Positions 23,283 through 47,280 of a stretch of DNA of 64,000 nt are shown one piece after another. Each line of letters begins with the position of its first letter. The stretch's first letter is position 1. A program made the translations under genes and the position numbers. Below the pieces are notes generated by a model, which saw only the letters and a list, made by a program, of their open reading frames with translations, did no database searches and had not been told where the DNA came from. Source of the DNA: Escherichia coli (GTDB taxonomy: Bacteria; Pseudomonadota; Gammaproteobacteria; Enterobacterales; Enterobacteriaceae); assembly GCF_003334305.1 (NCBI RefSeq), contig NZ_QOWS01000017.1. One strand, 5' to 3'.

Positions 23283-23358
23283 GCCGATATAGCTCAGTTG
23301 GTAGAGCAGCGCATTCGTAATGCGAAGGTCGTAGGTTCGACTCCTATTATCGGCACCA
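23283..23358 (+). tRNA. thrW: tRNA-Thr (anticodon CGU)
   Basis: 76-nt cloverleaf GCCGATA/TATCGGC acceptor stem, anticodon loop TTCGTAA, T-arm GTAGGTTCGACTCCTAT, encoded CCA. Lies downstream of proA as in K-12. Confidence 0.95.
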
Positions 23359-23360
23359 TC
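23340..23360. repeat. att core copy 1 (thrW 3' end; attL of the P4-like element)
   Basis: actcctattatcggcaccatc is repeated exactly at 35185-35205 and imperfectly at 47262-47280. Confidence 0.85.
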
Positions 23361-23522
23361 CCCACTTCTTCAAACGTCCGTATTTGTCCGTAACCATACT
23401 GTTTTATAAAAGATTTTTTGTTCTTGTTGTCCGTATTAGTCCATAACCTTCCAGTAGAATCCAGTACTAAATGTGTATAGGATTATGTATATGTTCCTGT
23501 TCGACTTTGGAATTCTATACAC

Positions 23523-24692
23523 ATGCCCCTAAATGATATGCAGATTCGTCGTGCTAAACCTGAAGCTAAAGCCTATACACTTGGGGATGGGCAAGGGCTG
23601 TCTTTACTTGTAGAGCCAAATGGAAGTAAAAGCTGGCGATTTCGTTATCGCTATGCAGGTAAACCTAAAATGATCTCGCTTGGTGTCTATCCAACGATCA
23701 CACTTGCTGAAGCTCGTTCCCGTCGTGATGAGGCCCGAAAAATAGTGGCTGAGGGAAAAAACCCTAGTGAGGTACGAAAAGAACAAAAACTAGCATTAAG
23801 AATTCAATCTGAGAATGCATTCGAAAAGATTGCTAGAGAGTGGCATCGGATGAAGTCGTTAAAATGGTCTGCTGGGTACGCCTCGGATATTATGGAAGCG
23901 TTCCAGAATGATATTTTTCCGTATGTGGGAACGAGGCCTATAGGAGAAATTAAACCGCTAGAGCTGTTAAATGTACTGCGTAAAATTGAGAAGCGTGGCG
24001 CATTGGAGAAAATGCGAAAAGTACGGCAACGTTGCTCAGAAGTTTTTCGATATGCCATTGCTACCGGAAGAGCAGAGTTTAATCCTGCCGCAGATCTATC
24101 CAGTGCTCTCGAAGTACATAAATCAAATCATTTTCCATTCTTAAAATCAGATGAGATACCTGATTTTCTGCGTGCTTTAGATCGCTATACAGGGAGTCAA
24201 CTTGTCGTTATTGCTACGAAGTTATTGATGATCACGGGAGTAAGAACCATCGAATTACGTACCGCATTATGGTCAGAATTTGATTTGGATAACGCTATTT
24301 GGGAAATTCCTGCTGAAAGAATGAAAATGCGCAGGTCACATCTTGTTCCATTGTCGACTCAAGCGTTAGATTTACTTAATGAACTCAAGATAATGACAGG
24401 GAACTATCGTTATGTTTTTCCGGGGCGGAACGACCCGAACAAGCCTATGAGTGAGGCGAGTATAAATCAGGTTATCAAAAGGATTGGTTATGGCGGAAAA
24501 CTTACTGGACACGGATTTAGGCATATGATGTCTACATTGTTGCATGAACAAGGGTTTGATTCATTTTGGATTGAGATTCAATTAGCCCATGTAGATAAAA
24601 ATAGTATTCGTGGAACTTATAATCATGCGCTGTATTTAGAAAAGCGAAGAGATATGCTTCAGTGGTACTCTTCTTTTATAATGGAGCACTAA
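23523..24692 (+). CDS. int: P4-type tyrosine integrase
   Basis: 389 aa. N-terminal arm-binding domain (AKAYTLGDGQGLSLLVEPNGSKSWRFRYRYAGKPK). Catalytic R (TGVRTIELR), HxxR (GHGFRHMMST) and Y (IRGTYNH). Adjacent to the tRNA. Confidence 0.9.
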   Translation: MPLNDMQIRRAKPEAKAYTLGDGQGLSLLVEPNGSKSWRFRYRYAGKPKMISLGVYPTITLAEARSRRDEARKIVAEGKNPSEVRKEQKLALRIQSENAFEKIAREWHRMKSLKWSAGYASDIMEAFQNDIFPYVGTRPIGEIKPLELLNVLRKIEKRGALEKMRKVRQRCSEVFRYAIATGRAEFNPAADLSSALEVHKSNHFPFLKSDEIPDFLRALDRYTGSQLVVIATKLLMITGVRTIELRTALWSEFDLDNAIWEIPAERMKMRRSHLVPLSTQALDLLNELKIMTGNYRYVFPGRNDPNKPMSEASINQVIKRIGYGGKLTGHGFRHMMSTLLHEQGFDSFWIEIQLAHVDKNSIRGTYNHALYLEKRRDMLQWYSSFIMEH

Positions 24693-24693
24693 A

Positions 24694-26397
24694 ATGTATA
24701 TTGATAATGTGTATTTAAAAGGATTTAGGAACTATTCTGATAGTTTTGTAAAATTTAATTATTCAACTCTTATAATTGGTGGTAATGATGTTGGTAAGAC
24801 CAACTTATTGTATTCATTAAGGATTTTGTTGGATAAAAGCTTTTCGGATTTAGATTTAGAACCTAAAAATAGCGATTTTCATATTGATGCGAAAGGAAAT
24901 CAGTGTGAAGAGTTAGAAATAATAATTAATTTTCGTGAAGTAAAAGAGGATGCTGTTCTCTCTAAGTTAGCGGGGTATGTTAGTGATGATGCACAAACAT
25001 ACATCAAATATAAAGCATACAGAGCTACTCTTGATTACAAGTTATATATAGGCCACAAAGAATCTGAAATGGATGAGATTAGTGGCAGATTTTATCTTAA
25101 ATATTTAAATTTACGCTATGTGAATTCACAGCGAGACCTTGCTAAATATATATCTACAGAGAAAAAACATTTACTTCGGCTTGCTCAGGAAATGAGAAAC
25201 GAGGAGCAAGTGCGGAAGGATGAAAATACTTTGAATGAATTAACTAATTTATTAAATGATGTCAATGATAAGGTAAAAGAAATAAGCTACGTCTCGACCG
25301 CTACGGAAGAATTGAATGATGAGTTAAAGAAATTATCATATAACAATGAAAAGATTTCTGTAATGCTCGATTCTGGAGCAATTGGTGTTGATCAGTTTAT
25401 TGAAAAATTAGAGTTAAGTTCAAATACAAATGGAAAAAAGGTAATGCTTGGAGGGGACGGATTTAATAACCAAGTATTACTTGCATTATGGAAAGCCAAG
25501 AGTGTACGCGAGCACGATACTGAAAATGAAGTGGTTATATATTGTGTTGAAGAACCTGAATCACATCTTTATCCGCACCAACAGAGAAAATTATCTGAGT
25601 ATTTAATTAGTAAATTGCCGGGGCAGTCTCTAGTAACTACGCATTCTCCGCAAATTGCCATTAATTACTCACCAGATTCAATAATTAAAATTTGCTCTTA
25701 TAACGGTGAGTCTTACGCAGCAAGTGAAGGGTGTTCAGATTGCATAAGTAATGCCTGGAGTGGAATGGGATACAGGATGAGTATACTTCCTGCAGAGGCA
25801 TTCTTCGCTAATGTCGTATTCTTGGTCGAAGGGCCTTCTGAAATGTTATTTTATCAGGCCCTTGCAAAAGAGTGCCAAATTGATCTGGATTTCTTTAATA
25901 TAAGTATATTATCAGTTGATGGCGTTCAATTTGAAGTTTATAGAAAAATTCTTGATGCACTTGAGATTAAATGGGTTGCTCGTACAGATAATGATTCGTC
26001 TAAAGTTCCAAGGAAAAAAGAGTGGCAATATTCAGGTTTAAATCGAGCTTTGGCTCTATGTGGAATGGAGCCACTAAAGAATGAATTAACGGAAATATCT
26101 CAAGCTCAAAGAATAGAGAAACACAAAATTTATAAAGATAAGCTTAAACATCATAATATATTTGTTTCAATTAATGATCTCGAGGGTGATATTGGCGTTG
26201 AGTTAAGTACACAGCTGAAAGAATATGTAGGTGTTGATAATGAGGAAATTGCTGCTGATTATTTAAGAGGAAAGAAAGCAATAAGGATGCAAGAGTTCTT
26301 AGGTGAATACTCTTATGCACTGAAAAATATTTCAGACGGTGAATTAATTCAACCCCTTTTAACTGCTGTAAAATTGGCTACGGAAGAGTTGAGATGA
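24694..26397 (+). CDS. gajA: OLD-family ATPase-TOPRIM nuclease (Gabija GajA-like, class 2 OLD)
   Basis: 567 aa. Walker A GGNDVGKTN, VEEPESHLYPHQQRKL (Walker B/D-loop). C-terminal TOPRIM-like VFLVEGPSE ... SVDG ... ARTDNDS. AT-rich compared with its flanks. Overlaps the following helicase gene. Confidence 0.75.
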   Translation: MYIDNVYLKGFRNYSDSFVKFNYSTLIIGGNDVGKTNLLYSLRILLDKSFSDLDLEPKNSDFHIDAKGNQCEELEIIINFREVKEDAVLSKLAGYVSDDAQTYIKYKAYRATLDYKLYIGHKESEMDEISGRFYLKYLNLRYVNSQRDLAKYISTEKKHLLRLAQEMRNEEQVRKDENTLNELTNLLNDVNDKVKEISYVSTATEELNDELKKLSYNNEKISVMLDSGAIGVDQFIEKLELSSNTNGKKVMLGGDGFNNQVLLALWKAKSVREHDTENEVVIYCVEEPESHLYPHQQRKLSEYLISKLPGQSLVTTHSPQIAINYSPDSIIKICSYNGESYAASEGCSDCISNAWSGMGYRMSILPAEAFFANVVFLVEGPSEMLFYQALAKECQIDLDFFNISILSVDGVQFEVYRKILDALEIKWVARTDNDSSKVPRKKEWQYSGLNRALALCGMEPLKNELTEISQAQRIEKHKIYKDKLKHHNIFVSINDLEGDIGVELSTQLKEYVGVDNEEIAADYLRGKKAIRMQEFLGEYSYALKNISDGELIQPLLTAVKLATEELR

Positions 26398-28016
26398 TAG
26401 ATTTTACCCATGAGCAAAAAGCAGCAATAGATTACCCATCTAGTATGGTATTGACGGCTTGTCCTGGAAGTGGGAAAACAGCAGTAATCGTAGAGAAGAT
26501 TGTCCGTGACTTGGTGGAATGCAAGGAATATCAGGGTGTTATTGCCATATCGTATACTAACAAAGCAAGCGATGAACTGAAAAAGAGATGTTTAAAGGCT
26601 ACTCCAAATTCAAAATCAAGCTTTTTTGGGACAATAGATAAATTTTATTTGACTGAAGTTATTTTACCATTCATTAAGCAATTATGGGGAAGAGTTGATG
26701 ACTTACATGTAGTTAAGCTTAATGAGTTAGCTTCTTCTGAAAAAGATAGGCTTTCTGCTTTTTTTAATGTCGAATTCATTTGTGAAAAAATTAATGAGTA
26801 TGATTTTAAGGATATAAAGGAACTATACGCCAATGGTATTCTAATACTGGAGTTTATACCATTGCTTGCATTTTATATATTGCGTAACTCGTTAGCATGT
26901 CGCCGATATATCGCTAAAAAATACACATCTATATATATTGATGAGTATCAAGATGCTGGATGTGTTCAGCATCTTCTTTTTCTTTATCTTTTCGAACTTG
27001 GAGTAAAAGCGGTTGCAGTTGGTGATGCTGACCAATCCATATATTCATATGCGGGTAAAAGTTCGAAATACTTAATGTCTTTACTGGATGAAAAAAGTGG
27101 CTTTGCCCCTTTTAAAATAACTATAAATCATCGTTCTCATTCATCTATAGTTAATTATGCTTCTCGATTGTTGAATGAAAACTGTGACTTGTTAATAACA
27201 GATGAAATTCGTGTCTACAGAAAAACTGTTAATGGTACTCAATGTGAAATAGCTAAGTGGATTGATGCTAATATTAACAATATTAAACGAAAGTTCAATA
27301 TTTCAAAAGAAAAAGAGATAGCGATACTTACTGCAACGAATAGTTCTGTCGCTTTAGTATCCGGCCTTATAAACTCCAAAGCAAGAGCATATCTTGATGA
27401 TGAGCTGTCTGTACTCGGTGGAGATGTGTCTCTCTTATTAAAGAACCTTTTGAATTATCGATTTAATAAAACGATTACAGCACAGGCTATCATTGAAAGT
27501 TTAAATTACAAGGTGCTAGAGAGGAATGCAATAAGAAAGATGAGGGGGGTTATTAGAGATGTGAGAGATTCTAATGACAACCAACTTATTCCTGATTTAC
27601 GTAAGGCAGTAAAATTATTAATCAACGCTGATATTTCTGCTAACCATATTGATGCCATTAACTCAATCTTACACAATAAAATGATGCTAAATAATTATTT
27701 ACCAGTTAGTGATGATGAGTTACAAATAATGACTTTACATAAAGCAAAAGGACTAGAGTTCGACTTTGTTTTTCATTTGGATCTTTATGATTGGATATTA
27801 CCGCGAAGGGAATATATAAAACATTGTTTTGATGAGGTTTTTTCACATTATGAGCAATGTCTGAATCTTCATTATGTTGGAGTTACTAGGGCCAAAAAAG
27901 CCGTGGTATTAATAAATTCTACTGAGCGTTTAAATTATCAGAGTGAATTAAAAAAAGCGAAACCATCTCAGTTCTTGTCACTAAAAGGACTTGAAAGTCT
28001 GTATAAAAAAATTTAA
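26394..28016 (+). CDS. gajB: UvrD/PcrA/Rep-like SF1 helicase (Gabija GajB-like)
   Basis: 540 aa. Motif I ACPGSGKT, II IYIDEYQD, III VGDADQSIY, IV NHRS, V/VI TLHKAKGLEFDFVF and YVGVTRAKK. 4-nt overlap with the upstream OLD-like gene. Confidence 0.75.
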   Translation: MIDFTHEQKAAIDYPSSMVLTACPGSGKTAVIVEKIVRDLVECKEYQGVIAISYTNKASDELKKRCLKATPNSKSSFFGTIDKFYLTEVILPFIKQLWGRVDDLHVVKLNELASSEKDRLSAFFNVEFICEKINEYDFKDIKELYANGILILEFIPLLAFYILRNSLACRRYIAKKYTSIYIDEYQDAGCVQHLLFLYLFELGVKAVAVGDADQSIYSYAGKSSKYLMSLLDEKSGFAPFKITINHRSHSSIVNYASRLLNENCDLLITDEIRVYRKTVNGTQCEIAKWIDANINNIKRKFNISKEKEIAILTATNSSVALVSGLINSKARAYLDDELSVLGGDVSLLLKNLLNYRFNKTITAQAIIESLNYKVLERNAIRKMRGVIRDVRDSNDNQLIPDLRKAVKLLINADISANHIDAINSILHNKMMLNNYLPVSDDELQIMTLHKAKGLEFDFVFHLDLYDWILPRREYIKHCFDEVFSHYEQCLNLHYVGVTRAKKAVVLINSTERLNYQSELKKAKPSQFLSLKGLESLYKKI

Positions 28017-28035
28017 TTACGTATCTTGGCGCGCA

Positions 28036-28054
28036 GTGCTCTCCCCGCCTCGCC
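28036..28054. other. P2/P4-type cos cohesive-end sequence
   Basis: The reverse complement reads GGCGAGGCGGGGAGAGCAC, one mismatch from the recalled 19-nt P2/P4 cos end GGCGAGGCGGGGAAAGCAC. Positioned next to psu as in P4. Confidence 0.7.
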
Positions 28055-28219
28055 CGCCCGCTTTGCGGGGCGGTTTTAATGCAGTTGCACTGACACGCTC
28101 AGACCGCGCCGGGAATGGCGCGGTCTGCAGAAAATGAGTCAGGAAAACGCATGCAAAGCCATGCACCTTATCGATGCATGGCTTTTTTCAGTAAAAACAG
28201 GCGGATTTTTCGGGGAGTT

Positions 28220-28792
28220 TTACACAGACTGACGTGATGCCAGTTCTGCACTTTTACGCGAAAAAATCATGTTCTGCGCAGGGGTGAATTTTTCACGGCT
28301 GTCATCCACCGAAGCCGCGTCAGGCCTGAATCCGATGGTCGTTAAAATGTCGCTATCCTGTGCGGAATAATTAATTTTTTCCCCCTTCGCAAGCCAGGAC
28401 AGAAGGGCTTCACGCAGGGCATCTGTGGCACGCTGTATGGCACAGTTTCGGGCAATGGCCGTCAGCTCACTGTAGCCCATCAGCTCCGGTGCCAGTGCGG
28501 CCGCCAGTGCTGTGCCGTGCTGCTGCATAAAATCATTCAGCCGCTCGCGGATGCTGATGTGCTGAACGGCTTCATGCGAACGAACATAACGACCGGCGGC
28601 CTGATTCACCTGCCATTTTCTGACTTCGATAATATTGCGTAATTCGTCCAGGCGACTGACGTTTCTGCCTTCCCCGGACAGAAGCCGCAGATATTCCTGT
28701 TCGGCTGCCGCCAGTTCATTTTTGCGCTGAAGCCATGCCGCTTTGTTATTCTGGCAGACCTCAAAAGCCTGCTGTAATGACATTGTGGTCAC
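28220..28792 (-). CDS. psu: Psu (polarity suppression / capsid decoration protein)
   Basis: 190 aa, MTTMSLQQAFEVCQNNKAAWLQRKNELAAAEQEYLRLL. Position and length match P4 Psu. Confidence 0.85.
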   Translation of the reverse strand: MTTMSLQQAFEVCQNNKAAWLQRKNELAAAEQEYLRLLSGEGRNVSRLDELRNIIEVRKWQVNQAAGRYVRSHEAVQHISIRERLNDFMQQHGTALAAALAPELMGYSELTAIARNCAIQRATDALREALLSWLAKGEKINYSAQDSDILTTIGFRPDAASVDDSREKFTPAQNMIFSRKSAELASRQSV

Positions 28793-28806
28793 ACCCCGTC
28801 TCCTGA

Positions 28807-29052
28807 TTAATGGTTGAATGGTGAGCTGTAACAGCCTTTAACTTTTCGGACAACAGCCGGTGCTGTGCTTGCCGGTGCTGGTTTTTCCTCCGTGACCGGA
28901 GAACGAATCACGGCACAAATTGACTCATGCGTTTTAAATGTCGCCGAACAGTAAATATTCTGGCACTGCAGATAACTTTCTTTGACATTGTCACTCACAT
29001 ACCGGCTGGTGCGGGTATGCGCTGAATGACGACAGAAAGGGCAGCGCATCAT
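28807..29052 (-). CDS. delta: Ogr/Delta-family zinc-finger late transcription activator
   Basis: 81 aa with CPFC...CQNIYC, the four-Cys arrangement typical of Ogr/Delta. Lies between sid and psu. Confidence 0.8.
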   Translation of the reverse strand: MMRCPFCRHSAHTRTSRYVSDNVKESYLQCQNIYCSATFKTHESICAVIRSPVTEEKPAPASTAPAVVRKVKGCYSSPFNH

Positions 29053-29783
29053 GACAGCAGTCCTCTGGCCTTAAGCACTGCTCCCTGCTGGTCTATTTTG
29101 TCCTGCCACACCTTGCGCTGTGCCGGTGTGCCTGCCACCTCATAATCCATGTGCGGGAGTGTTGCCGCTGACAGTCCGGTCAGCCGGAGAACCGGCTCGC
29201 CGGTGAGGCTGATTTGCATCTGTTTTATTTTCTGTTCCAGCGATGATTTCACCTGCTGCATGACAGCTTTATCGGGTGCGACGTAGCCCTGATGGCCGGT
29301 GGTGTTGGCGAGCGGATTTTCCTGTACCAGGATACTCAGATGCATTGCCCGGACAAGCGCCTCACAGGTTTCATTCAGGGCGTGTTCCAGCTCATGCTCT
29401 GCATACAGACTCAGAAGGTGATGATGTGCCTTCCGGTAGGCGGTGGCCGTGCTGTCACACGCCCCTTTCAGGCGTTCACGTTCAAAATTCAGCACCACGG
29501 CCAGATTGTCATATTCCTGTACCAGCTCCCGGCGTGCCACGCGCTCAATGTGGCGCTGTTTCAGCTCATCGCTCAGGACACCACCGGCTGCACGAAAGGC
29601 CGTGCGCCAGTCGTCAGCGTCGTTTCCGTCGGCCTGCGCCAGCGCATTTTTTTCCTGCTCTGCCCGTTCAATGGCCGTAACGGTCTCATCCATCAGGCGG
29701 GCGTTCTCAAGATGGGCGGCTCTGGACTTTTCCAGTTGTGCCAGTGCGGGTTGCAGATATTCAGGGATAGTGTGGTCAGACAT
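29049..29783 (-). CDS. sid: Sid capsid size-determination (external scaffold) protein
   Basis: 244 aa from MSDHTIPEYLQPALAQLEK, coiled-coil rich. The longer 266-codon ORF start is unlikely because the Ogr/Delta box fits a TSS near 29810. Confidence 0.8.
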   Translation of the reverse strand: MSDHTIPEYLQPALAQLEKSRAAHLENARLMDETVTAIERAEQEKNALAQADGNDADDWRTAFRAAGGVLSDELKQRHIERVARRELVQEYDNLAVVLNFERERLKGACDSTATAYRKAHHHLLSLYAEHELEHALNETCEALVRAMHLSILVQENPLANTTGHQGYVAPDKAVMQQVKSSLEQKIKQMQISLTGEPVLRLTGLSAATLPHMDYEVAGTPAQRKVWQDKIDQQGAVLKARGLLS

Positions 29784-29855
29784 TTTCCGGCTCCTCGTCA
29801 CTTCAGGTTGAGAAAATTGTGACGTACACCGGACAACAACACGACGCATTGCAGA

Positions 29856-29873
29856 TGTGCCAGCCCTGACACA
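29856..29873. promoter_or_regulatory. TGT-N12-ACA activator box (Psid-like late promoter)
   Basis: tgtgccagccctgacaca. Its centre is about 55 bp upstream of a TSS that would lie ~27 nt before the sid ATG. This fits recalled P2/P4 late promoter architecture. Confidence 0.55.
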
Positions 29874-29952
29874 GGAGACTCATCCTCAGACCGGCAAGCC
29901 AGGAAAAGGTCGCAGGAAAAACCGGCTTACTGTTTGTTTTTTTATATTTTAC

Positions 29953-30056
29953 TGTTCACCTCTGTTCACCATAAGAAAAAAGATAAGTAATACAGTAAGT
30001 TAAAGGGTGAACAATCGCAGTAATGACTGTTCACCGTCTGTTCACCACTGTTCACC
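29953..30056. repeat. P4 ori-like iteron cluster (TGTTCACC octamers)
   Basis: Six copies: 29953, 29963, 30028, 30039 and 30049 direct, and 30006 inverted. Recalled alpha-protein type I repeats. Confidence 0.75.
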
Positions 30057-30215
30057 CGTTGATGGGCTTTTTGTGCTGTTTATTACTGTTTGTTTTTATT
30101 AATTCGCCGGGAATGAATAAGAAAAAACGATTTGTATTTCACTATAAAAATTACGAATTGCTTTAAGTGGCTTTAAATGACTTTAAGTGGAGATGAACAA
30201 AAAACACACAAGCAT

Positions 30216-30233
30216 TGTAAGGCTGCCGGAACA
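30216..30233. promoter_or_regulatory. TGT-N12-ACA activator box (PLL-like late promoter toward vis)
   Basis: tgtaaggctgccggaaca, centred ~110 bp upstream of the vis ATG and divergent from Psid. Confidence 0.5.
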
Positions 30234-30335
30234 AATCCCCCCTGTTGCGTCTGCTGAAAATATTCACAAAATAAAACGCTACCCGAAGCCGGACGGACTT
30301 ATCCGGTGCTGTATGGACATTAACGAGGTAGCCCG

Positions 30336-30602
30336 ATGCAAGCTGTTTTTTCTTCCCCGTCTCCTGCCCCTGTGACGCCACTGATGCCGCTGCCGGACAT
30401 CACACAGGAGCGTTTTTTACGTCTGCCGGAAGTGATGCACCTGTGCGGCCTGTCACGCTCGACCATCTATGAACTTATCCGTAAGGGGGAATTTCCGCCG
30501 CAGGTGAGTCTTGGCGGTAAAAATGTGGCCTGGCTGCACTCTGAAGTCACCGCATGGATGGCCGGGCGCATTGCCGGACGCAAACGGGGGTACGACGCAT
30601 GA
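30336..30602 (+). CDS. vis: Vis / AlpA-family excisionase-regulator
   Basis: 88 aa. MerR-like w[49 protein letters not shown]. Same length as P4 orf88 (Vis). Confidence 0.8.
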
Positions 30603-30637
30603 TGATGCCCGCTCTGCAAAAAGTCCCTTTTTCTGGC

Positions 30638-30667
30638 TTGCCTTTTTCCGGCATTTGCGGATATAGT
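30638..30667 (+). promoter_or_regulatory. candidate PLE-like sigma70 promoter
   Basis: TTGCCT - 18 nt - TATAGT immediately downstream of vis, where P4 places its early/immunity promoter (recalled). Confidence 0.35.
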
Positions 30668-30991
30668 TTTTCCGTTGCCGCAAAATCGGCAGCCGGGCGT
30701 GAGAACCCGTGTAACTCGAAGGCGACATATGACGCGCCATGCGTCTTTTTTTGTGTCGCAATCAACGCCACAGAGCGCCAGATTATGGTGTGGCGTGTGG
30801 TTTGCCGTGCAGGTATGATCCTGTTCGCAATCGCATGTTATGCCACTGAGTCAATGGTAGCTCAGGCGGGGCAGCCTCCGGGCTGGCCGGTATTCTTCGA
30901 GGCCGGTATTCTCACCCCCGTCTGGGCTATCGCCATCGAGCGTGAGAACTCCGGCGATAGCAGTTATTTGCTACTCGAAGGAGGCTGCCTT

Positions 30992-31189
30992 ATGGCTACA
31001 ACCCTTACCCCCTCACACCCTGAATTTGTCTTTGTGTTTGCGGCTGTCCGTCGCGCAGACCGTCATCCCCGTATCTGCATGCTTCGCACCGTCGCCGGTG
31101 ATGAACGCAGCGCCCGCCGTTCCCTTGTCCGTGACTATGTGCTCTCCCTTGCTGCCCGTCTGCCGGTGGTGGAGGTGTCCCGTGCGTAA
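30992..31189 (+). CDS. Icd-like / P4 kil-region small protein
   Basis: 65 aa [45 protein letters not shown]... with a strong RBS gaaggagg 6 nt upstream. Resembles proteins annotated as Icd-like cell-division inhibitors in P4-like elements (recalled). Confidence 0.5.
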
Positions 31190-38427: not shown

Positions 38428-38486
38428 AGGTATTAGAGGGGACAGGAATAGATTCTTATCCTCTAAATAATTAAACCAATGCACCG

Positions 38487-38526: not shown

Positions 38527-38554
38527 TAACCAAATCGAATAAGGAGGCTAATTA

Positions 38555-38731: not shown

Positions 38732-38753
38732 TAGACAAGAGAAGGAGAAAACT

Positions 38754-38921: not shown

Positions 38922-38974
38922 TCCTCATTCACTTTAGTAGCGCATTAAGCGTGATTTATAAGGAGATGATTCTA

Positions 38975-39718: not shown

Positions 39719-39729
39719 TAAGGAGGACT

Positions 39730-40009
39730 ATGATTCAATATTTAGTAAAAAAATCAAGTAGACAGAATTCAGTGTAATGACACAGGAAAACGCATCTACG
39801 AAACACTTGCTTACCTCTATAAAGGAAAGCCAACACCGCTAAAATATAGCGATGTGTTACATCGAGCAGGGTGCTCTGAAGCTGGTTTAAAATTCTGGCT
39901 GAAACAGCTATCAAATTTCGGTGTTATTGAAATGAAAGAGCTGTCTTTTTCTACATTCAATCTCAAAAGATTAGATAAAGAAATAGAATTCATCTATTCC
40001 ACTCTCTAA
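39730..40009 (+). pseudogene. wHTH protein gene interrupted by a frameshift in an A7 run (or using programmed slippage)
   Basis: Strong RBS taaggagg then ATG 39730. The frame closes at 39777. The +1 frame stays open to 40009 and encodes ...GKRIYETLAYLYKGKPTPLKYSDVLHRAGCSEAGLKFWLKQLSNFGVIEMKE. The switch point is A7 at 39747-39753. One fewer A gives a continuous 92-aa ORF. Confidence 0.5.
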
Positions 40010-40050
40010 AATCTCTCTATGTAATTAAAATATAAAAGGAAAACATTATT

Positions 40051-40170
40051 ATGATAGTAGCTATGTATTGGTTATTGTTCTTTCTCACGTTAGAAGCATA
40101 CTTTGGGGTGTTTTCCTTTAAAAGAAAAGGAAAAGTAAATAATGGCAAAAAGAAAAAACAACGTTGTTAA
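40051..40170 (+). CDS. small hydrophobic peptide with polybasic tail (39 aa)
   Basis: MIVAMYWLLFFLTLEAYFGVFSFKRKGKVNNGKKKKQRC: one TM helix plus a K-rich tail. RBS-like aagga 10 nt upstream. Overlaps the next ORF by 29 nt. Confidence 0.3.
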   Translation: MIVAMYWLLFFLTLEAYFGVFSFKRKGKVNNGKKKKQRC

Positions 40171-40558
40171 GAAAATCGGTGATTCAGCTTCTCTTCTAAG
40201 TAAACCTAAACCTAAATCTATTCTAAGACGTAAAGACTTTAAAGAGCTAGTTACGCTCACCAAGCAAAATAGCGCCCCTGGCGAATGGAAAACAGAGATC
40301 ATAGAACATTCTCCCTCTGTGCCTTGTGGAGATGAATTTAACGCCTTGCAAGAAATCTTATCTTCAACACCTGGCGTATTCTGGAAACCTAGAAAAAGAA
40401 AAGAGTATATCGTTGATAGCTCTGATTTACGCAAATACCAGATTTTAGGATTTGAAGATTATAACCACTACGTCGGTTATCTCGCCACCAATGGCCTAAA
40501 TAATTTAGTTCCTGAATTCCAAATTTTAGATAATGCTGATCACTATGGAGACTTTTAA
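40142..40558 (+). CDS. hypothetical protein with basic N-terminus
   Basis: 138 aa in the same orientation as the operon. No domain recognised. Confidence 0.5.
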   Translation: MAKRKNNVVKKIGDSASLLSKPKPKSILRRKDFKELVTLTKQNSAPGEWKTEIIEHSPSVPCGDEFNALQEILSSTPGVFWKPRKRKEYIVDSSDLRKYQILGFEDYNHYVGYLATNGLNNLVPEFQILDNADHYGDF

Positions 40559-40559
40559 T

Positions 40560-40898
40560 ATGAACAAAAACACGTATGACACAATTTATTCACTAATTAA
40601 TTATTATGAGGATGATTACCTCCTGCCTTTAAACCGCGCTGAACTTGAAGCATACAAAGAAAACACGCCAGGGGCGCTAAATGAGGCGTTTAAACACTGG
40701 GATTTAGCTGTGAATGCCTTTGAGCACCTTTCTAAAAGAGTAGAGATGCTCTGTAAGCGTGAAAACGCATACCTGACAGCCGATCAGATATGGGAGCTAT
40801 CAAACTGGATAGAAGATATTGAATCTGATGTTCGCTATGTAGGGGATGGCCTGGTTGAATTAGCTCAACGCTTAGGCGCTACTATCACAGAAGAATAA
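40560..40898 (+). CDS. hypothetical protein
   Basis: 112 aa from an ATG 2 nt after the upstream stop. Helical and acidic. No domain recognised. Confidence 0.5.
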   Translation: MNKNTYDTIYSLINYYEDDYLLPLNRAELEAYKENTPGALNEAFKHWDLAVNAFEHLSKRVEMLCKRENAYLTADQIWELSNWIEDIESDVRYVGDGLVELAQRLGATITEE

Positions 40899-40927
40899 AA
40901 AAAGCAACAAAAAAGTTGTAAAATATC

Positions 40928-40956
40928 TTGACATTCCATCTATTGTATGTTAATAT
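40928..40956 (+). promoter_or_regulatory. strong sigma70 promoter P2 (extended -10)
   Basis: TTGACA - 17 nt - TGtTAATAT, followed by aat-TATATA-GGGG. Same layout as P1. Confidence 0.65.
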
Positions 40957-41094
40957 AATTATATAGGGGTGATTATTTTTCCTTTATTGGTTCGATATTA
41001 AAAATTCTTCCTGTCATTAAAGGGGAGTAAAATCTCCGCTCCCCGCTTCTCCTCCTTAAGTAAATACTGTGTCATTATACCTCTTTTTTCCTTT

Positions 41095-41124
41095 GTTATG
41101 CATACATCTTGGAGTATGCATAAC
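41095..41124. other. perfect 10-bp inverted repeat in the P2 leader
   Basis: gttatgcata-catcttggag-tatgcataac. Confidence 0.6.
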
Positions 41125-41153
41125 ATAGGGTAATTACATAGGTATGAGTTAAT

Positions 41154-41185
41154 AAAAGGCGGCTCTAAATGCTGCCTTTTATTTT
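41154..41185 (+). terminator. intrinsic terminator ending the P2 leader
   Basis: aaaaggcggc-tctaaat-gctgcctttt (10 bp including one G-U) followed by ATTTT. Ends 63 nt before ATG 41248. Confidence 0.65.
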
Positions 41186-41247
41186 GCCCGTTATGCAACT
41201 TAAAAGTTGTATTTCTTACTTTAAAAAAGGTAACAAGGTTTATATAA

Positions 41248-41460
41248 ATGTTGTTTTTAAACGATAAAGAGCAAATCATCAAGTATAAAGATGAAATGCT
41301 GAAAATTAATCCACAAATTACCGAAATGGTAGCTAAATACGCTGGGTGTTCTGTCGAGGAAGTAGAAAGATGTGTTGAAAAATATTTTTCTCCTTCTACT
41401 CCGTCTACACCTTCCCTTAATGAATTAATCAAATTAAAAGCTAAGGAGATTACTAAATGA
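41248..41460 (+). CDS. small hypothetical protein
   Basis: 70 aa. First gene after the P2 leader. The stop overlaps the next start (ATGA). Confidence 0.5.
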   Translation: MLFLNDKEQIIKYKDEMLKINPQITEMVAKYAGCSVEEVERCVEKYFSPSTPSTPSLNELIKLKAKEITK

Positions 41461-41819
41461 TTATTGATTTAGACACTCTGTTTCCAGTTAGAAAGACTTT
41501 CACAGATATTGTAAGTTATTGTACTGATCCGTTTGCCTCTGTAGAAAGCAAGGTTTTTGCTTCTCTTCCTGCTGATGTTGAGTGCGGCGACTTGATCACC
41601 AGTACTGGCGCTAAATATGAATCAGGAGATGATATCTATGTTGTTATGAGTGAATTTGTAACGGCTGGAGAAAACAAGCCTGTAGATGTGCTACGTAGTA
41701 ATGCTGGTCTTGTCTGCATCAAAGCTGATGCGCTGAATGCTGTAAGTGAAGCAGCAAAAACAGCATTAATTAAAAAAGGCTTCCAGCTTGAAGGGTTCCA
41801 TTCTGTTTTCACTTCTTAA
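41457..41819 (+). CDS. head-decoration-like protein (lambda D-like position and size)
   Basis: 120 aa directly upstream of the capsid-like gene. The size and G-rich beta-type pattern loosely resemble lambda gpD-type decoration proteins. The call is based on synteny. Confidence 0.4.
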   Translation: MIIDLDTLFPVRKTFTDIVSYCTDPFASVESKVFASLPADVECGDLITSTGAKYESGDDIYVVMSEFVTAGENKPVDVLRSNAGLVCIKADALNAVSEAAKTALIKKGFQLEGFHSVFTS

Positions 41820-41837
41820 TAAAAGGAATAATAATAA

Positions 41838-42869
41838 ATGATTCTAGGTAATGATTACGTTGATTTAGCTCCGCTTTTCCAGGCACACAGCACTAGAAAC
41901 TTTCTGCTCTCTACCCTCGACTTCACTGATCCGGTGGGCGTTAGTTCTCATAAAGTAGCTGTTTCTCAGCTTGTCGAAAGCAACGAATCTCTGTTCAACA
42001 AAGAAACCTCTCGTTTCTCTTCTGAACACAATGTTACTAAGCGTGAACAAGGTAAAGAATGGCTGATTGAAATCCCGTATTTTCTTCGTGAAGATGTGAT
42101 CCGTCCTTCTGATGTTCAAGGCAAGCGTAAGCCTGGCACTGATTTTCAGGAAACACTCACTGATATCTATGCGGAATATATCGCTAAACACCACGTAGCG
42201 TATCAGCGTACAAAAGAGAGCGTGTTGGCTGCATCTCTGTTTAGCGGTAAAACTTACACGCCTAAAACTGATGATGTTCTTATCGAGTGGGGCAAGCTGT
42301 TTAACGTGGCACCTATGAAAGCCACCTTGAACGCTTCCAGCACTGACACAATGACCGTTTTCAAGCAATTTGACCAGCTTGCTACGGATATGATTGCTAA
42401 GGCACAAAACCAGGCTGCAACCATTGAGCGTGTTGTTGTGTTCTGTAAACCTGCGGCATTCAACGCTATTCGTTACAGTGTTGGTATGGTCAATGCTTTC
42501 CAATATGCAAGCCCTGTAGACGATGCCAACGTGGTGTTTAATGTGCGTTCCCTGCTACCAGGTGTAACTACTTTCACCATTCCAGGAACTAACATTGACC
42601 TGATCAAAGTGACTGATCCGCTACACCTTGCACATATGGCTTCTGATGCGGTTGCTGTGCCTAAATTCGCTAAGGGGGCAGGTGTTTACCAATCTATCTA
42701 TGGGGCAGCTTCCAGCACCTTTGAACTGATCAATGCCGCTCCTGCTGAGGTGTATAGCTATAGCTATGAATCTTCTTCTCGTGGTGATGCTGTTAACGTT
42801 GTTACAGAGAATAGCCAGATGGTGGTAAACCACGGCGTTGGTTTCTCCGTTCAAATCACTGTTAAATAA
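41838..42869 (+). CDS. major capsid protein, lambda gpE-like family (putative)
   Basis: 343 aa (lambda gpE is 341 aa). N-terminal LAPLFQAHSTRNFLLSTLDF resembles the P.TFLLDTFF motif I recall from Phage_cap_E proteins. RBS aaaggaa. Followed by a strong terminator. Confidence 0.5.
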   Translation: MILGNDYVDLAPLFQAHSTRNFLLSTLDFTDPVGVSSHKVAVSQLVESNESLFNKETSRFSSEHNVTKREQGKEWLIEIPYFLREDVIRPSDVQGKRKPGTDFQETLTDIYAEYIAKHHVAYQRTKESVLAASLFSGKTYTPKTDDVLIEWGKLFNVAPMKATLNASSTDTMTVFKQFDQLATDMIAKAQNQAATIERVVVFCKPAAFNAIRYSVGMVNAFQYASPVDDANVVFNVRSLLPGVTTFTIPGTNIDLIKVTDPLHLAHMASDAVAVPKFAKGAGVYQSIYGAASSTFELINAAPAEVYSYSYESSSRGDAVNVVTENSQMVVNHGVGFSVQITVK

Positions 42870-42887
42870 TATTTTAACGTGTAATAG

Positions 42888-42922
42888 AGGCGTGGCGTGA
42901 ATAACACGCTTCGCCTTTTTTT
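42888..42922 (+). terminator. intrinsic terminator after the capsid-like gene
   Basis: aggcg-tg-gcgtg aataa cacgc-tt-cgcct followed by T6. Confidence 0.7.
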
Positions 42923-42955
42923 ATTTATTTTTAAATTTTGAGAGGTGATTAAAAT

Positions 42956-43159
42956 ATGGAAGTGATTCTGAAATCAAAAAATGGTGTACACGTTTATTTA
43001 GATGCTAATGATTCAAGAGGCTTGTTAAATCTGAAATATCTATGTTCTCTCTTGGATGTTCCATATGAAGGCGTAAAAGCCCGAATGTTCAGATTAAACG
43101 AGAGTATTGATCAAGCTCTACACCATTTCTTAAGCAAAGAAGGTGGTAAAAATGATTAA
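42956..43159 (+). CDS. small hypothetical protein (possible HTH)
   Basis: 67 aa with RBS gagagg. The segment LKYLCSLLDVPYEGVKARMFRLNESIDQAL looks HTH-like. Confidence 0.45.
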   Translation: MEVILKSKNGVHVYLDANDSRGLLNLKYLCSLLDVPYEGVKARMFRLNESIDQALHHFLSKEGGKND

Positions 43160-43173
43160 TAAGGGGATTTTAA

Positions 43174-45012
43174 ATGTTAGAAATTAACACTTCTAAAATT
43201 AAGAACACAGTAACATTTAGTGTAGATAAAGACAGCTTGAAAAAAGCGAAAGACTCTATTACAGGCTTAAAGGAATTCACAGAAAACATCAAGCCAGCTA
43301 AATTAAGGTTTGATAGTGTCACTAAAGGCTATAAGAAAGCACAAAGCGAAGTAGACAAGATTGCTCAACAGAAAGCTAAAACAGAAAAGCAGAATCAAAG
43401 AGCACAAGCTGCCGCAGCAAGAGCACAGGCAAGGCAACAGACACAAATAGCAGCACGTAAAGAGAAAGCAGAATTAAAGCTCCTCGATGTGTCAAGCTCT
43501 ATCAGTGCAATGCACCGCCTCTCTGTAGCGGAACAATACAAAGCTATTGCACAGGCTAGAGAGATAGCAAAACAATATGAGCAAGGGGCTATCTCGCTTG
43601 CACGTATGAATAGTCAGATGAAACGCCTACAACAGCAACAACGTAAGATTAATGGCAACAGAAAAGCTCAATTAGCCCCCGTTAAGGGAGGAGGATCAGG
43701 GAATTCCGCCACGATGGGTGCTCTGTTATTTGGAGGCGCTACAGCGGCTGCTGGCGTGATGGCTGTTAGTAAAGCGTCGGAGTTTGTTAGTAACAGTTTC
43801 GCTAACGCAGAGACACAAGGTGAGCTAATTCAACGTGCAAGGCTTGGCGGTGTAGACGTTAACCAGATGTACAACATTACAGAATGGGCCTATAGAAACG
43901 GCGTTGACTCTATGATGGGTGATCAAGGGGCTAGGAAATACCTGGATCAGATGAAAGATGTTAGGGAACGTGCCGCAAAATCCTATAGTGAAGCTGAATA
44001 TGTAGTCGATAAAAAAACTGGTAAAGGCGGCGAATGGAAAGGCGGTGATAACGCTATTAATGAACTTCTAAACATCGGTGTTATTAACAAGAGCGACCTT
44101 AAAAAATTTGCTGATAATCCAGCCGGATTAATTTCTAAGGCTGTTAATGGAATGATGAAAAAAGGGTTTTCAGACTCCCAAATTGGACAACGTTTAGAAG
44201 ACCTGGGTGATGATTTGATGCTTACATCAAAATATTGGCAACGTTCCGTTAAAGATGTACAAACAAGCATCGAGCAGCAAAAAGCCTCTGGAAAATGGCT
44301 AACAGAAACACAGCAAGATTCTATTGTTAAATTCAGAGAACTAAACAGACAGCTTTCACAGCTTTCTGATGCAAGACAAGTAGCATTTGTAGACGGCTTT
44401 ATGAAATCTCTCGATCCAAAAGTAACGGAAGAGTTTATGAAAAACCTTTCTAATCTCACTCCGTATTTTACAAAGCTGGGAGAAGCTACAGGAAGTCTCT
44501 TTGAAGCTATTATGAAGATTGTAAACTGGTTTAATCGTAATGATGATAAGACAGATGCTATTCAGAAAAATTTAGGTGATGCACCGCCATTAAGCAATGA
44601 AGGAATGAAACAGAATCTTTCTAATCTCGTTCCTGATCAATATAAAGGCGCTGGCACCGGAACAACTAAGCCAGATAACAGCAATTCCCTGTTTAACACT
44701 ATTAAGGGATTGCTTTTCGATGATAAGTCTTCTTCTGTGTCAGATGTAAAAATGTCAGTCAGCGAAGCACCGATAACCAATCTCAAACAGGGCGCTTTAA
44801 ATAATCTTGCAATGACAACTCCGGCTTATAATTTATCTCCTGTGTTTAATCTGAATCCTACATTTGAAGTGGTAACAGAGGTTCCTCTTACTATTAATTC
44901 TGACACATCAAGATTAAGCGATTATGTGGATTTTACAGCGAGATCAAGTCGGGATAGCTTCTTGAAATCATTAACATTAACCAGCTTATCAGGACAATCT
45001 AACGGCGGGTAA
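43174..45012 (+). CDS. tape-measure-like protein
   Basis: 612 aa. N-terminal Q/A/K-rich coiled coil, Gly-rich hydrophobic segment GGGSGNSATMGALLFGGATAAAGVMAV, then a long helical region. This composition is typical of tail tape measure proteins. Confidence 0.45.
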   Translation: MLEINTSKIKNTVTFSVDKDSLKKAKDSITGLKEFTENIKPAKLRFDSVTKGYKKAQSEVDKIAQQKAKTEKQNQRAQAAAARAQARQQTQIAARKEKAELKLLDVSSSISAMHRLSVAEQYKAIAQAREIAKQYEQGAISLARMNSQMKRLQQQQRKINGNRKAQLAPVKGGGSGNSATMGALLFGGATAAAGVMAVSKASEFVSNSFANAETQGELIQRARLGGVDVNQMYNITEWAYRNGVDSMMGDQGARKYLDQMKDVRERAAKSYSEAEYVVDKKTGKGGEWKGGDNAINELLNIGVINKSDLKKFADNPAGLISKAVNGMMKKGFSDSQIGQRLEDLGDDLMLTSKYWQRSVKDVQTSIEQQKASGKWLTETQQDSIVKFRELNRQLSQLSDARQVAFVDGFMKSLDPKVTEEFMKNLSNLTPYFTKLGEATGSLFEAIMKIVNWFNRNDDKTDAIQKNLGDAPPLSNEGMKQNLSNLVPDQYKGAGTGTTKPDNSNSLFNTIKGLLFDDKSSSVSDVKMSVSEAPITNLKQGALNNLAMTTPAYNLSPVFNLNPTFEVVTEVPLTINSDTSRLSDYVDFTARSSRDSFLKSLTLTSLSGQSNGG

Positions 45013-45046
45013 TTCCCGCCATAACATTACAAGGAAAATTATTATT

Positions 45047-45760
45047 ATGGCGACCGCCGGGATTTTAACCATACGTGCAGCAAATACTCCAGAACAACAC
45101 GTTCAGGCTGTTTACAAAGCAGAACAAGATATAAATTCTACAAAAAACGAAAATAGCAAAGCTAATAAAACAAAAGGAGAGAACGGATTTGCTATTGTTA
45201 CCAGTGGCTTGGCATCTTCTGGCAATGACGTTTATGAAAATTATATGGCCCTGGCCTTTGACAGTGTAGACGATGTGAACGTGAGACGTTCGGCAGATGT
45301 CACAAGCTACCCCGTAGAAAATGGTGCTACTGTGTCTGATCACGTTCAAATTAAAAACAATAAGTTTTCTCTTAAAGGAAGGATCACTGAAACACCGATT
45401 AAAAGCGATCCTGGCTTGTTAAAGAGTGCAGGGGTGAACGGGAACAGAAGATCATTAGCCATAGACTACTTGAATCAGATTATGGACAGTAGACAGCCTT
45501 TTCTTCTTGTTACAGAAAATAAAACTTTTGAGAACGTTGTTTTAACAGGCATCGAATACACAGAAGAGGCAAGCGAATCCCTGGTATTTGATCTTAGCTT
45601 TGAGCAGATCAGATTAGTTTCTTATGGCACTGTATCCACTATTGCACTTAAAACACAACCATCTAAGAACATCGGGGCGAATATGAAAAAACGTGTTAAC
45701 ACTGAAAAATCAAGTAGTGAAGGTGAAGACACTATTACTCCTGCCTTTAAGCAGAAATAG
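45047..45760 (+). CDS. putative virion (tail-lumen / tube-initiator-like) protein
   Basis: 237 aa directly after the TMP-like gene. The motif VTSYPVENGATVSDHVQIKNNKFSLKGRITE recalls the (H)EYPGRD..VEDLG...S..G pattern of Mu gp43-type tail proteins. The resemblance is weak. Confidence 0.3.
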   Translation: MATAGILTIRAANTPEQHVQAVYKAEQDINSTKNENSKANKTKGENGFAIVTSGLASSGNDVYENYMALAFDSVDDVNVRRSADVTSYPVENGATVSDHVQIKNNKFSLKGRITETPIKSDPGLLKSAGVNGNRRSLAIDYLNQIMDSRQPFLLVTENKTFENVVLTGIEYTEEASESLVFDLSFEQIRLVSYGTVSTIALKTQPSKNIGANMKKRVNTEKSSSEGEDTITPAFKQK

Positions 45761-45801
45761 CCGTAAACGCCTCTAAAACGCTCTGTAACGATGTAATTAT
45801 A

Positions 45802-45834
45802 AAAGAGGCTGCCAATCTATGTTGAAGCCTCTTT
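45802..45834. terminator. bidirectional hairpin between convergent genes
   Basis: aaagaggct - 15 nt - agcctcttt, a 9-bp perfect stem between the 45760 stop and the integrase stop. Confidence 0.55.
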
Positions 45835-45841
45835 ATTGTGT

Positions 45842-47206
45842 TTATGGCGTTGTTTTACGCCTTAAATTTGATTTTTTATTGATTGATAAGCCTTTCTCTA
45901 TTTCAGGGTAGCGTAGAAGCTCAATATAGTTTTTAAGCTCTACTGGAGAAGCTGCATTCTTGCTATATGTGCGGAATGTCTCTGTATTGCCGCGTGTATG
46001 GCCCAGGAGAAGGGCGATCCTGTCTTCTGGAATTTGATTTCGATCAAGAAGCTGTGCTACTCCGTGTCTCAGAGAATGAAACACTTTCCTTTCTGTTCCC
46101 TTTTCCCCTAAAGCCTTTCGTTTAGCTCTTGTAAATCTCTGCGTGTGCCACGTGGAACGTTTACCATCAGCACGCTCTGTAATGCTGGCGTGATAGAACA
46201 AAAAGCCATTATGAGGCTTTTCACGCAGCGACAACACCAACGGAGTGATAAGGCTATGTACAGGCACAACACGTGCCGCAGCTTTCGTTTTTCCCTGTGT
46301 GATTTCAAAACACAGCACACCTTCGATCTCTTTCACATCGTCTATTGTGAGACTTGCTATCTCATTGATCCGCATACCTGTATATAAACCGATAAGACAC
46401 AAAGCCATCATTTCTTTGTTTTCTGCTGAATTACCGGAAAATACTTGCAACACCTGCAATAGCTCTTTGTTAGAAAATGCCTCGTAGCTCTCTCTACTTT
46501 GTGCCACATCAAGCCTATGCCCTCGCCAGGGGGAGAGCGCCCTTTCTGGCGCATCGTGGTAACGTGATGAAGCTAACTCCCATAGCTGGGCTATTGGGCT
46601 GATATAATTTGCAATTGATTGTTGTGAAAGAGTTTTTTGCATGTGTTCTATCCAGCCTGTAACAGTGGTGCGGCTCACATCTTGCAATGCAATATCAGGC
46701 TTTTTACGGTAGGAGAGAAACATCTCTACCGCTTTTCTTGCCTTAGCTAAAGTGGCTGGCTTCTTCTTCGTGCTGTTAATTGTCAGGTAGATTTCAAGAA
46801 TTTTAAGCAATGACGGACACGAAGACGCTGTATCTTGCATTCTGGTAGCTGTTTTGGCGTATTTAGCCTTACTGCGTAACAGCTCCAGCGTGTTCTCTAT
46901 TGTGCTGTTTACAGGGGCGACACTCTCCCGTAGGCAATGGTATTCATCTGCAATCTGATCACGCTTTCTACGTGCAACACGAAGATTATTTGTGTGTAGA
47001 CTTCTGACAAACGTCCTTTTTCCTTCAAAAAAGGGCTGCATATACACAGGCAGCGTGATCCTTAAATAGTAGTTACCGTAAGAATCACAGATTAAGTATT
47101 GGTTAGGCTTGTATCTCATAAAATCTCCGGCTAAAGTGTCGGAGCGTTTGTAATGTGAAAATTGATTGTAACGCATAGAAAATGATAATTTTTCTATAAG
47201 ATTCAA
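45842..47206 (-). CDS. tyrosine recombinase/integrase of the second island (K-12 IntF-like position)
   Basis: 454 aa. Catalytic R (TGMRINEIASL), HxLRH (FHSLRHGVAQLL) and HTRGNTETFRTYSK (H...Y). N-terminal YYLRITLPVYMQPFFEGKRTFVRSLHT arm-type domain. Adjacent to the thrW-like fragment, as intF-ptwF is in K-12 (recalled). Confidence 0.85.
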   Translation of the reverse strand: MNLIEKLSFSMRYNQFSHYKRSDTLAGDFMRYKPNQYLICDSYGNYYLRITLPVYMQPFFEGKRTFVRSLHTNNLRVARRKRDQIADEYHCLRESVAPVNSTIENTLELLRSKAKYAKTATRMQDTASSCPSLLKILEIYLTINSTKKKPATLAKARKAVEMFLSYRKKPDIALQDVSRTTVTGWIEHMQKTLSQQSIANYISPIAQLWELASSRYHDAPERALSPWRGHRLDVAQSRESYEAFSNKELLQVLQVFSGNSAENKEMMALCLIGLYTGMRINEIASLTIDDVKEIEGVLCFEITQGKTKAAARVVPVHSLITPLVLSLREKPHNGFLFYHASITERADGKRSTWHTQRFTRAKRKALGEKGTERKVFHSLRHGVAQLLDRNQIPEDRIALLLGHTRGNTETFRTYSKNAASPVELKNYIELLRYPEIEKGLSINKKSNLRRKTTP

Positions 47207-47217
47207 TCAATTAGTAA

Positions 47218-47280
47218 TGGTCGTAGGTGATGGCATTAACACGAGATTAATCGAGTGTTTTACTCCTATTATCGCACCAT
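47218..47280 (+). pseudogene. thrW-like tRNA 3' fragment / degenerate att core copy 3 (ptwF-like)
   Basis: ggtcgtaggt (as thrW 23328-23337), then 34 nt of unrelated sequence (47228-47261), then actcctattatcg-caccat (thrW 3' end with a 1-nt deletion). Confidence 0.65.

Follow-up and report, generated by a model that had tools for sequence, protein, structure and literature searches.

Two integrative elements in tandem at the thrW gene of Escherichia coli: a P4-like satellite, an AT-rich phage-like element, and a one-base difference between att copies that may record their order of arrival

In a 64,000-nucleotide stretch of Escherichia coli DNA (contig NZ_QOWS01000017.1 of assembly GCF_003334305.1, hereafter the window), the tRNA gene thrW is followed by two integrative elements placed one behind the other: E1, a P4-like satellite, and E2, an AT-rich phage-like element. 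Gene annotation was taken from the RefSeq record of E. coli A7 (NZ_CP028767.1), which is 100% identical to the window over positions 23000-47600, and the arrangement is called A7 below. That two independent integrative elements form here a tandem array of an ordinary kind is hardly in doubt. The whole picture proposed here, in which the array contains an att arm owned by E2 and the P4-like satellite came first, we consider likely.

The sites and elements on which the argument rests are the following.

23283-23358, plus strand: thrW, an intact tRNA-Thr(CGU) gene (ARAGORN; Rfam tRNA, 71.8 bits).
23340-23360, plus strand: core copy 1, attL of E1, an exact match at the junction thrW / GG / P4-like left arm.
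23361-35184, no strand: E1, P4-like satellite of ~11.8 kb (alpha identity, RefSeq annotation, Rfam RNAs, solo copy in KCJ3K291).
35185-35205, plus strand: core copy 2, attR of E1 and attL of E2, at the junction P4 right arm / GG / E2 left arm.
35206-47261, no strand: E2, AT-rich phage-like integrative element of ~12 kb (G+C content 34-43%; left end adjoining thrW in 393 genomes; syntenic relatives).
47219-47261, plus strand: att arm of E2, made of GGTCGTAGGT (47219-47228) and a 33-nucleotide (nt) spacer (47229-47261), from comparison of arms across junctions.
47262-47280, plus strand: core copy 3, attR of E2, at the junction E2 arm / single G / native thrW downstream flank.

ARAGORN and Rfam found a single tRNA in the region, thrW. 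A first-pass annotation of this DNA had placed a 21-bp core at the tRNA 3' end and at 35185, with a copy one G short at 47262, and pattern matching confirmed it: the 21-mer ACTCCTATTATCGGCACCATC has exact copies at 23340-23360 and 35185-35205, for a chance expectation of 0, and the third copy, ACTCCTATTATCGCACCAT at 47262-47280, has one G fewer. Co-oriented 3' tRNA fragments mark each island boundary (35185 and 47262), the intact thrW standing at one end, and both elements share a 20-bp identity block consisting of the final 19 nt of the tRNA and one more base. To the right of the third copy lies the native thrW downstream sequence, identical in the K-12 ptwF flank and in empty sites.

The states of the thrW site were counted in 5426 complete E. 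coli genomes.

Empty site, thrW joined straight to the native flank: 948 genomes.
thrW followed by the E2 left end: 393 genomes.
E2 right end followed by the chromosome: 278 genomes.
P4-like right end followed by the chromosome: 461-506 genomes.
A7-type middle junction, P4 right arm / E2 left arm: 2 genomes, A7 and the soil isolate SC467.
Reverse order, thrW-E2-P4-like: 29 genomes, with one P4 variant (CRE1540 type).

E1 stands alone at thrW in KCJ3K291, with Int and GajA accessions identical to those of A7, and E2 stands alone in O104:H4 strains and in many Shiga toxin-producing E. coli. The comparison with single-element genomes that the first-pass annotation had proposed thus recovered both elements separately, along with the 948 empty sites, and its central proposal of two separate elements in tandem, each with its own integrase and flanking cores, is upheld by the many genomes carrying one or the other. 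Nor is the third core copy found where no island is present. By the Islander definition, the locus has an intact tRNA, an integrase for each member, separable members and empty sites. Such arrays are described as forming when a second element integrates into either of the cores regenerated by the first (PMC7192596, PMC4383910); Islander lists 125 tandems among 3919 islands, and unlike elements often share one tRNA in this way (PMC4383910, PMC7192596). As in the Islander and TIGER arrays (PMC4383910, PMC7192596), each member here comes with an integrase and a tRNA-derived fragment of its own, and nothing essential differs; what is added is a one-base difference between attP copies, which apparently records the site used.

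Other elements share this site. In viral contigs and other genomes, thrW arrays also take in anticodon-type phages and another phage type. The integrase types that use the site number at least four or five. Several IMG/VR contigs of 10-51 kb (L016-L019) contain an attP in free form whose core, ctgtgttTTACTCCTATTATCGGCACCAtcaacagaaaa, is that of thrW, and the right arm of this attP is the left end of the element lying behind the P4-like one in SC467 (L005, 13696). Judging from these att sites, the ctgtgttTTACTCCTATTATCGGCACCAtcaacagaaaa-type elements are a putative further combination of integrase and element type using the thrW core.

The third core copy is preceded by a short match to thrW, which had led to the proposal that the distal copy is a chromosomal 3' half of the tRNA with an insertion in its T-arm. 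The 10-nt match is real, although its place in thrW had been given one base off (23328-23337) and the spacer as 34 nt instead of 33: within the window, GGTCGTAGGT is found at two places only, 23327-23336 and 47219-47228. The chromosomal origin did not hold. In CRE1540 and the viral contigs L023, L035 and L036, an identical E2 arm adjoins the left end of a P4-like element, and the segment made of GGTCGTAGGT and the following 33 nt is missing from empty sites and from K-12 ptwF. Since the segment stays with Int2, the E2 integrase, beside P4-like left arms and does not stay with the chromosome, it is E2's own att arm, and we are nearly certain that it belongs there and not to a displaced chromosomal tRNA.

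A match of 10 nt is short, and in a distant relative (L033, Int 49% identical) a degenerate block stands in the place of GGTCGTAGGT, which speaks for a chance resemblance without any relation to the tRNA. Yet a match of at least 10 nt to thrW positions 1-57 was reached in the 150 nt upstream of the third copy in only 21 of 5000 shuffles, a Citrobacter relative (Int 55% identical) has at the same position a 14-nt exact thrW match followed by a 35-nt spacer and the core, and leuX-targeting relatives (Int 57-65% identical; E. coli, Klebsiella, Enterobacter) have 10-14-nt exact matches to leuX instead, followed by a spacer of about 32 nt with a palindrome and then by the leuX 3' part. Chance is therefore very improbable, and we conclude from these comparisons that the upstream block is genuinely tRNA-derived and owned by the element. 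It would be a tRNA-derived relic or a binding region in the E2 attP arm. The A7 spacer also contains a 22-bp imperfect palindrome (47238-47259). An intron-like insertion was considered for the 33-nt spacer and rejected as inconsistent, the spacer starting after position 37 in the leuX relatives and in the T-loop in thrW types. A simple insertion in the arm is likewise not established, because the L033 arm, which has contiguous thrW homology from position 40, aligns in register with the A7 arm and has the same overall length, whether the tRNA homology is contiguous or broken. Neither ARAGORN nor Rfam calls the distal copy as a functional or split tRNA gene.

When junctions were tabulated as left arm, G state and right arm, the single G proved to be constant at P4-like right ends, so that the third copy is not, as had been thought, a copy decayed by the loss of a G. 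The P4-like right end beside the chromosome has a single G in KCJ3K291, CRE1540, 120899 and UTAK-1; the best 25 matches in a search for the P4-arm/chromosome junction were all one base short, and with a GG query the best match among the 5426 genomes still contained one gap. In four complete P4-like elements from viral contigs, the int end bears GG and the alpha end a single G. The single G persists at P4-P4 junctions and beside flanks unlike the paoD-side one of E. coli (L020, L021, L025, L034, L037), and the left partners of P4 left arms, whether the tRNA, anticodon-type fragments or the E2 arm, keep GG. At the E2 right end beside the chromosome, 41 of the 60 best matches were one base longer than A7 (apparently mostly GG); direct reading gave GG in SC467 and E1V33. 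The junction P4 arm-G-chromosome seen in KCJ3K291 is the one predicted for a precursor of A7.

A leuX relative with a lost G had suggested that the single G might be carried by the E2 arm, with Int2 crossing over in CACCAT. This was ruled out by the GG of SC467 and E1V33, and by the one-base-longer junction in most of the best-matching genomes with E2 only, O26, O103 and O111 included.

These junctions can be read as a history in which the empty site received E1 and then E2, the P4-like element being probably the first comer. P4-like elements of the thrW type would carry in their right arm a copy of the tRNA end that is one G short, thrW itself keeping GG. The P4-type integrase would exchange strands 3' of G(G), within CACCAT, and Int2 5' of it, within the ACTCC-to-TATTATCG stretch. 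The free attP of a thrW-type P4-like element would then read a single G, and not ...TATTATCGGCACCATC... with GG. Integration of E2, its attP bearing GG, into a resident P4 arm-G-chromosome junction would produce P4 arm-GG-E2 arm on one side and E2 arm-G-chromosome on the other. The pair in A7 is P4 arm-GG-E2 arm and E2 arm-G-chromosome, and entry of E1 before E2 is therefore favoured, opposite to the order first proposed from the window, AT-rich island first and P4-like element later.

That earlier order, with E2 entering first, the P4-like element integrating later into the intact tRNA, and the third copy being a decayed chromosomal 3' half, draws some strength from the population, where 393 genomes have E2 beside thrW and only 2 have the A7-type junction, and from the third copy being followed on its right by the native downstream sequence of thrW. 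It conflicts with the behaviour of GGTCGTAGGT and its 33 nt, which move with E2, are found beside P4-like left arms and are absent from empty sites and ptwF; and a P4 arm with a single G would on this order leave P4 arm-G-E2 arm and E2 arm-GG-chromosome, the opposite of A7. We think it unlikely. No more credit goes to another explanation, under which the single G is a one-time, inherited deletion in the displaced chromosomal fragment, both integrases cross 5' of it, and the junctions do not tell which element came first. It would account for the single G beside the same E. coli flank behind P4 and E2 arms alike, in A7 and O104:H4, and for the GG present throughout SC467 and K-12. It does not account for the single G at P4-P4 junctions and beside flanks other than the paoD-side one, or for GG being present in none of the about 500 E. 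coli P4-arm/chromosome junctions sampled or ranked first.

Several observations weigh against a P4-like element arriving first. In SC467, GG stands at the middle and at the distal junction alike, which fits neither order unless the P4 variant there has GG or the assembly is wrong by one base. In O104:H4 strains, where E2 is the only element, the distal copy reads a single G, for which the model needs an earlier P4-like element, since lost. The core of P4's own leuX attP has GG, and in L007, a leuX-type E2 relative, the fragment at ~9830-9850 (minus strand) beside the chromosome is without one G of TCGGCACCA. The excised circular form of neither element was found in the viral contigs searched, and neither attP was seen directly there: a strict search of these contigs for the P4 attP pattern gave no match, and a search with the E2 arm matched only another thrW-targeting phage, of attP ctgtgttTTACTCC...GG...tcaacagaaaa. 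As a separate observation, the G lost in L007 is the same change as at thrW, though the P4 leuX attP core has GG.

Separate excision of E1 or of E2 is plausible, because each has its own pair of arms and an intact integrase, and because single and empty states all exist. Excision of E2 would give the circle ...gagtgttttACTCCTATTATCGGCACCATCaagaaaatc and a scar like that of KCJ3K291, ...taatattcACTCCTATTATCGCACCATTaaaatc; excision of E1 would give the circle taatattcACTCCTATTATCGGCACCATCcccacttc and the scar thrW followed by caagaaaatc. Joint excision of a 24-kb composite by means of the shared cores had also been suggested, and we found nothing to support it. It would need pairing of the E1 left arm with the E2 right arm. 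Hybrid att sites are poor substrates for arm-dependent integrases of the lambda type. A composite of 24 kb also exceeds the P4 capsid limit of ~12 kb (PMC9122126).

E1 is a genuine P4 relative with a thrW-specific integrase and att module. Its main features are these.

23523-24692, plus strand: Int1, P4-type tyrosine integrase of 389 amino acids (aa) (Pfam Arm-DNA-bind_3, Phage_int_M and Phage_integrase).
24694-28016, plus strand: Gabija pair, gajA at 24694-26397 and gajB at 26394-28016 (PADLOC; Pfam domains).
28220-29849, minus strand: psu, delta-like and sid homologues (RefSeq annotation; list of open reading frames, ORFs).
30661-30937, plus strand: P4 immunity RNAs c4-a1b1, isrK and C4 antisense RNA (Rfam, above gathering score).
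32388-34721, plus strand: alpha primase-helicase (identity to P4 alpha).

The alpha protein is identical to P4 alpha at 772 of 776 residues (99%), and the C4 RNA scores 74 bits in Rfam. Assignment of psu, delta, sid and epsilon was based on RefSeq product names and fitting ORF sizes; an Icd-like gene and a derepression protein are also annotated. Alpha, psu, delta, sid, epsilon, C4 RNA and a P4-type integrase are all shared with P4 (NC_001609; PMC8628076, PMC9122126), and the size of ~11.8 kb and the defence cargo between int and psu are those of P4-like satellites (PMC8628076, PMC9122126). E1 differs from P4, which targets leuX, in targeting thrW with an integrase merely 39% identical to P4 Int (E 8e-102), in having Gabija in place of gop, beta and cII, and in an attP arm that would be one G shorter than the tRNA, whereas the P4 attP core has GG. 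The int-psu interval is a defence hotspot of P4-like satellites (PMC9122126), and the Gabija pair occupies it in E1. By gene content the system appears to be complete, with adjacent GajA (ATPase and OLD/TOPRIM nuclease; PADLOC E 1e-253) and GajB (UvrD-like helicase; E 3e-229). In other thrW P4-like elements, the same hotspot holds a reverse transcriptase (RNA-directed DNA polymerase), a SIR2-family protein or other cargo.

The integrase of E2 lies at the far end of the array.

45842-47119, minus strand: Int2, DUF6538-type tyrosine integrase of 425 aa (Pfam DUF6538, SAM_5 and Phage_integrase).

Its ORF runs over 45842-47206 (454 aa), the likely true start being at 47119, where RefSeq places it and where the start region is conserved in relatives. 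The earlier description, a 389-aa P4-type integrase beside the tRNA and an inverted 454-aa one at the far end, was therefore right as to positions, and the second protein is probably of 425 aa. It had also called the two families different and unrelated. Int1 and Int2 have no BLASTP similarity (E 0.33) and their domain architectures do differ, but both contain an intact PF00589 tyrosine-recombinase catalytic domain, and "unrelated" goes too far.

The proposed comparison with the intF-ptwF junction of K-12 indicated that Int2 is not IntF: the two are 24% identical over 162 residues, in the catalytic domain only (E 2e-5). Like CP4-6 of K-12 (intF, ptwF), E2 sits at the same chromosomal site, with right flank aaaatcaaagagttacccc... 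and a distal integrase that reads inward. Its gene content is different, and K-12 ptwF is a contiguous 59-bp repeat starting from the anticodon stem and containing GG, in contrast with the 19 nt and detached 10-mer of A7. Upstream of int2, a minus-strand sigma-70-like promoter (TTGATT-17-TATCAT) is overlapped by a 23-nt inverted repeat, 83% complementary (47160-47212). Promoter and terminator scans near int2 gave consensus-level matches only; at that level, the inverted repeat at 47160-47212 and the palindrome at 47238-47259 could be regulatory or binding sites.

Besides int2, the genes of E2 with assigned homologues are as follows.

38918-39718 (ORF; 38975-39718 in RefSeq), plus strand: putative O-like replication initiator or helix-turn-helix protein (Pfam HTH_36, PHROG).
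41838-42869, plus strand: homologue of the lambda-E-like major capsid protein (PF03864 over its full length, E 2.8e-14; phrog_29; PDB 9zbi_A, E 1e-9).
43174-45012, plus strand: tape-measure homologue of phi92 gp134 type, 612 aa (PDB 21vq_V Phi92_gp134, E 2.4e-38; phrog_16051, E 4e-54).
45047-45760, plus strand: tail tube initiator homologue of phi92 gp135 type, Dit-like (PDB 21vq_N Phi92_gp135, E 3.1e-78; PF21821, E 4e-29).

For the replication-like ORF, HTH_36 was below the curated cutoff and PHROG replication-initiation families matched at E 9e-7. The role of phi92 gp134 is that of tape measure (PMC13450770), and the E2 homologue is 31-36% identical to proteins of ~130-150-kb E. coli phages, several of them labelled tape measure. 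The gp134 and gp135 homologues are adjacent in E2 (43174-45760), the phi92 gene order being kept. Terminase, portal, protease and alpA were not found among the 10 E2 ORFs scanned with Pfam and PHROG, a scan that did not include all small ORFs. By homology, a capsid gene and a phi92-type tail pair with no detected packaging genes make an apparently unusual set for a 12-kb integrative element.

In being small, site-specific and integrase-bearing, with capsid and tail-related genes but far from a full virion set, E2 resembles phage satellites such as the capsid-forming phage-inducible chromosomal islands. Among the genes that define the latter (terS, portal, protease, major capsid protein, connectors, alpA, pri-rep), it had in the 10 ORFs scanned only the major capsid homologue and the weak replication-initiator match; its tail genes are like those of a virulent myophage, phi92, and it has no known helper or induction. 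E2 of A7 is a mosaic, its middle having no nucleotide similarity to the copies in SC467, O104:H4 and F5505-C1. Its left ~3.5 kb (35206-38900) is AT-rich with almost no annotated genes, and a resolvase-family gene present in the left region of these three copies is absent from A7.

Around the att sites, an IHF-consensus-like motif (integration host factor), AATCAAnnnnTTA, is found at 35158-35175 in the P4-like right arm, at 35210-35227 in the E2 left arm and at 47282-47296 in the chromosomal flank after the tRNA fragment; the first two form an 18-nt direct repeat, 83% identical. Beyond the array comes the chromosomal flank.

47406-47744, minus strand: shortened remnant of yagP (LysR) (RefSeq).

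The yagP gene beside the att site is a truncated pseudogene in the window, in K-12 and in empty-site genomes; going by annotation alone, O157:H7 and O55:H7 records have at that position a LysR family transcriptional regulator instead of the truncated-domain label.

E. coli carries elements syntenic with E2 at thrW and leuX, and Klebsiella and Citrobacter have them too. Starting from the integrase, their genes are in order a tube initiator (in some), the tape-measure homologue, one small ORF, the capsid homologue, further small ORFs and a replication-like gene. They often stand back to back with a P4-type integrase (L008, L010, L011), and one P4-type neighbour at leuX carries a Hachiman system. 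A search of genome contigs with Int2 returned one close relative only. The capsid accession WP_000999103.1 is common to thrW copies and one leuX copy, and near-identical E2 bodies are found at leuX with a 57-65%-identical integrase (L011, E. coli F5505-C1, 16830-29640; L007-L010). Between a leuX copy and the A7 int gene, only the 3' third is shared (window 45784-46396), at ~93% nucleotide identity, which suggests that a specificity module of int may have been exchanged between thrW and leuX copies of E2.

We found no published description of this family in the literature on thrW satellites, on DUF6538 or on satellites with tape-measure and tube-initiator genes. As a tentative proposal, E2 may represent an undescribed enterobacterial family of satellites or tail-interference elements, with a capsid gene and phi92-type tail homologues, that would switch between thrW and leuX by means of the N-terminal part of its integrase and a tRNA-mimicking att arm, and would in this way repeatedly share cores and arrays with P4-like elements. 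It may instead be a decaying prophage.

As a tandem array the locus is textbook and adds a further case to those documented at thrW; its chief leads are the E2 family and G/GG as a record of the order of integration. The G/GG difference suggests that two integrases cut at different sub-positions of one 20-bp block, and the one-base difference between att copies seems to be a built-in record of the site used, from which the order of arrival could be read in arrays. Widespread and as yet unnamed, E2 adjoins thrW in about 7% of complete genomes of E. coli, and its capsid and phi92-type tail genes make it a candidate new satellite or anti-phage element.

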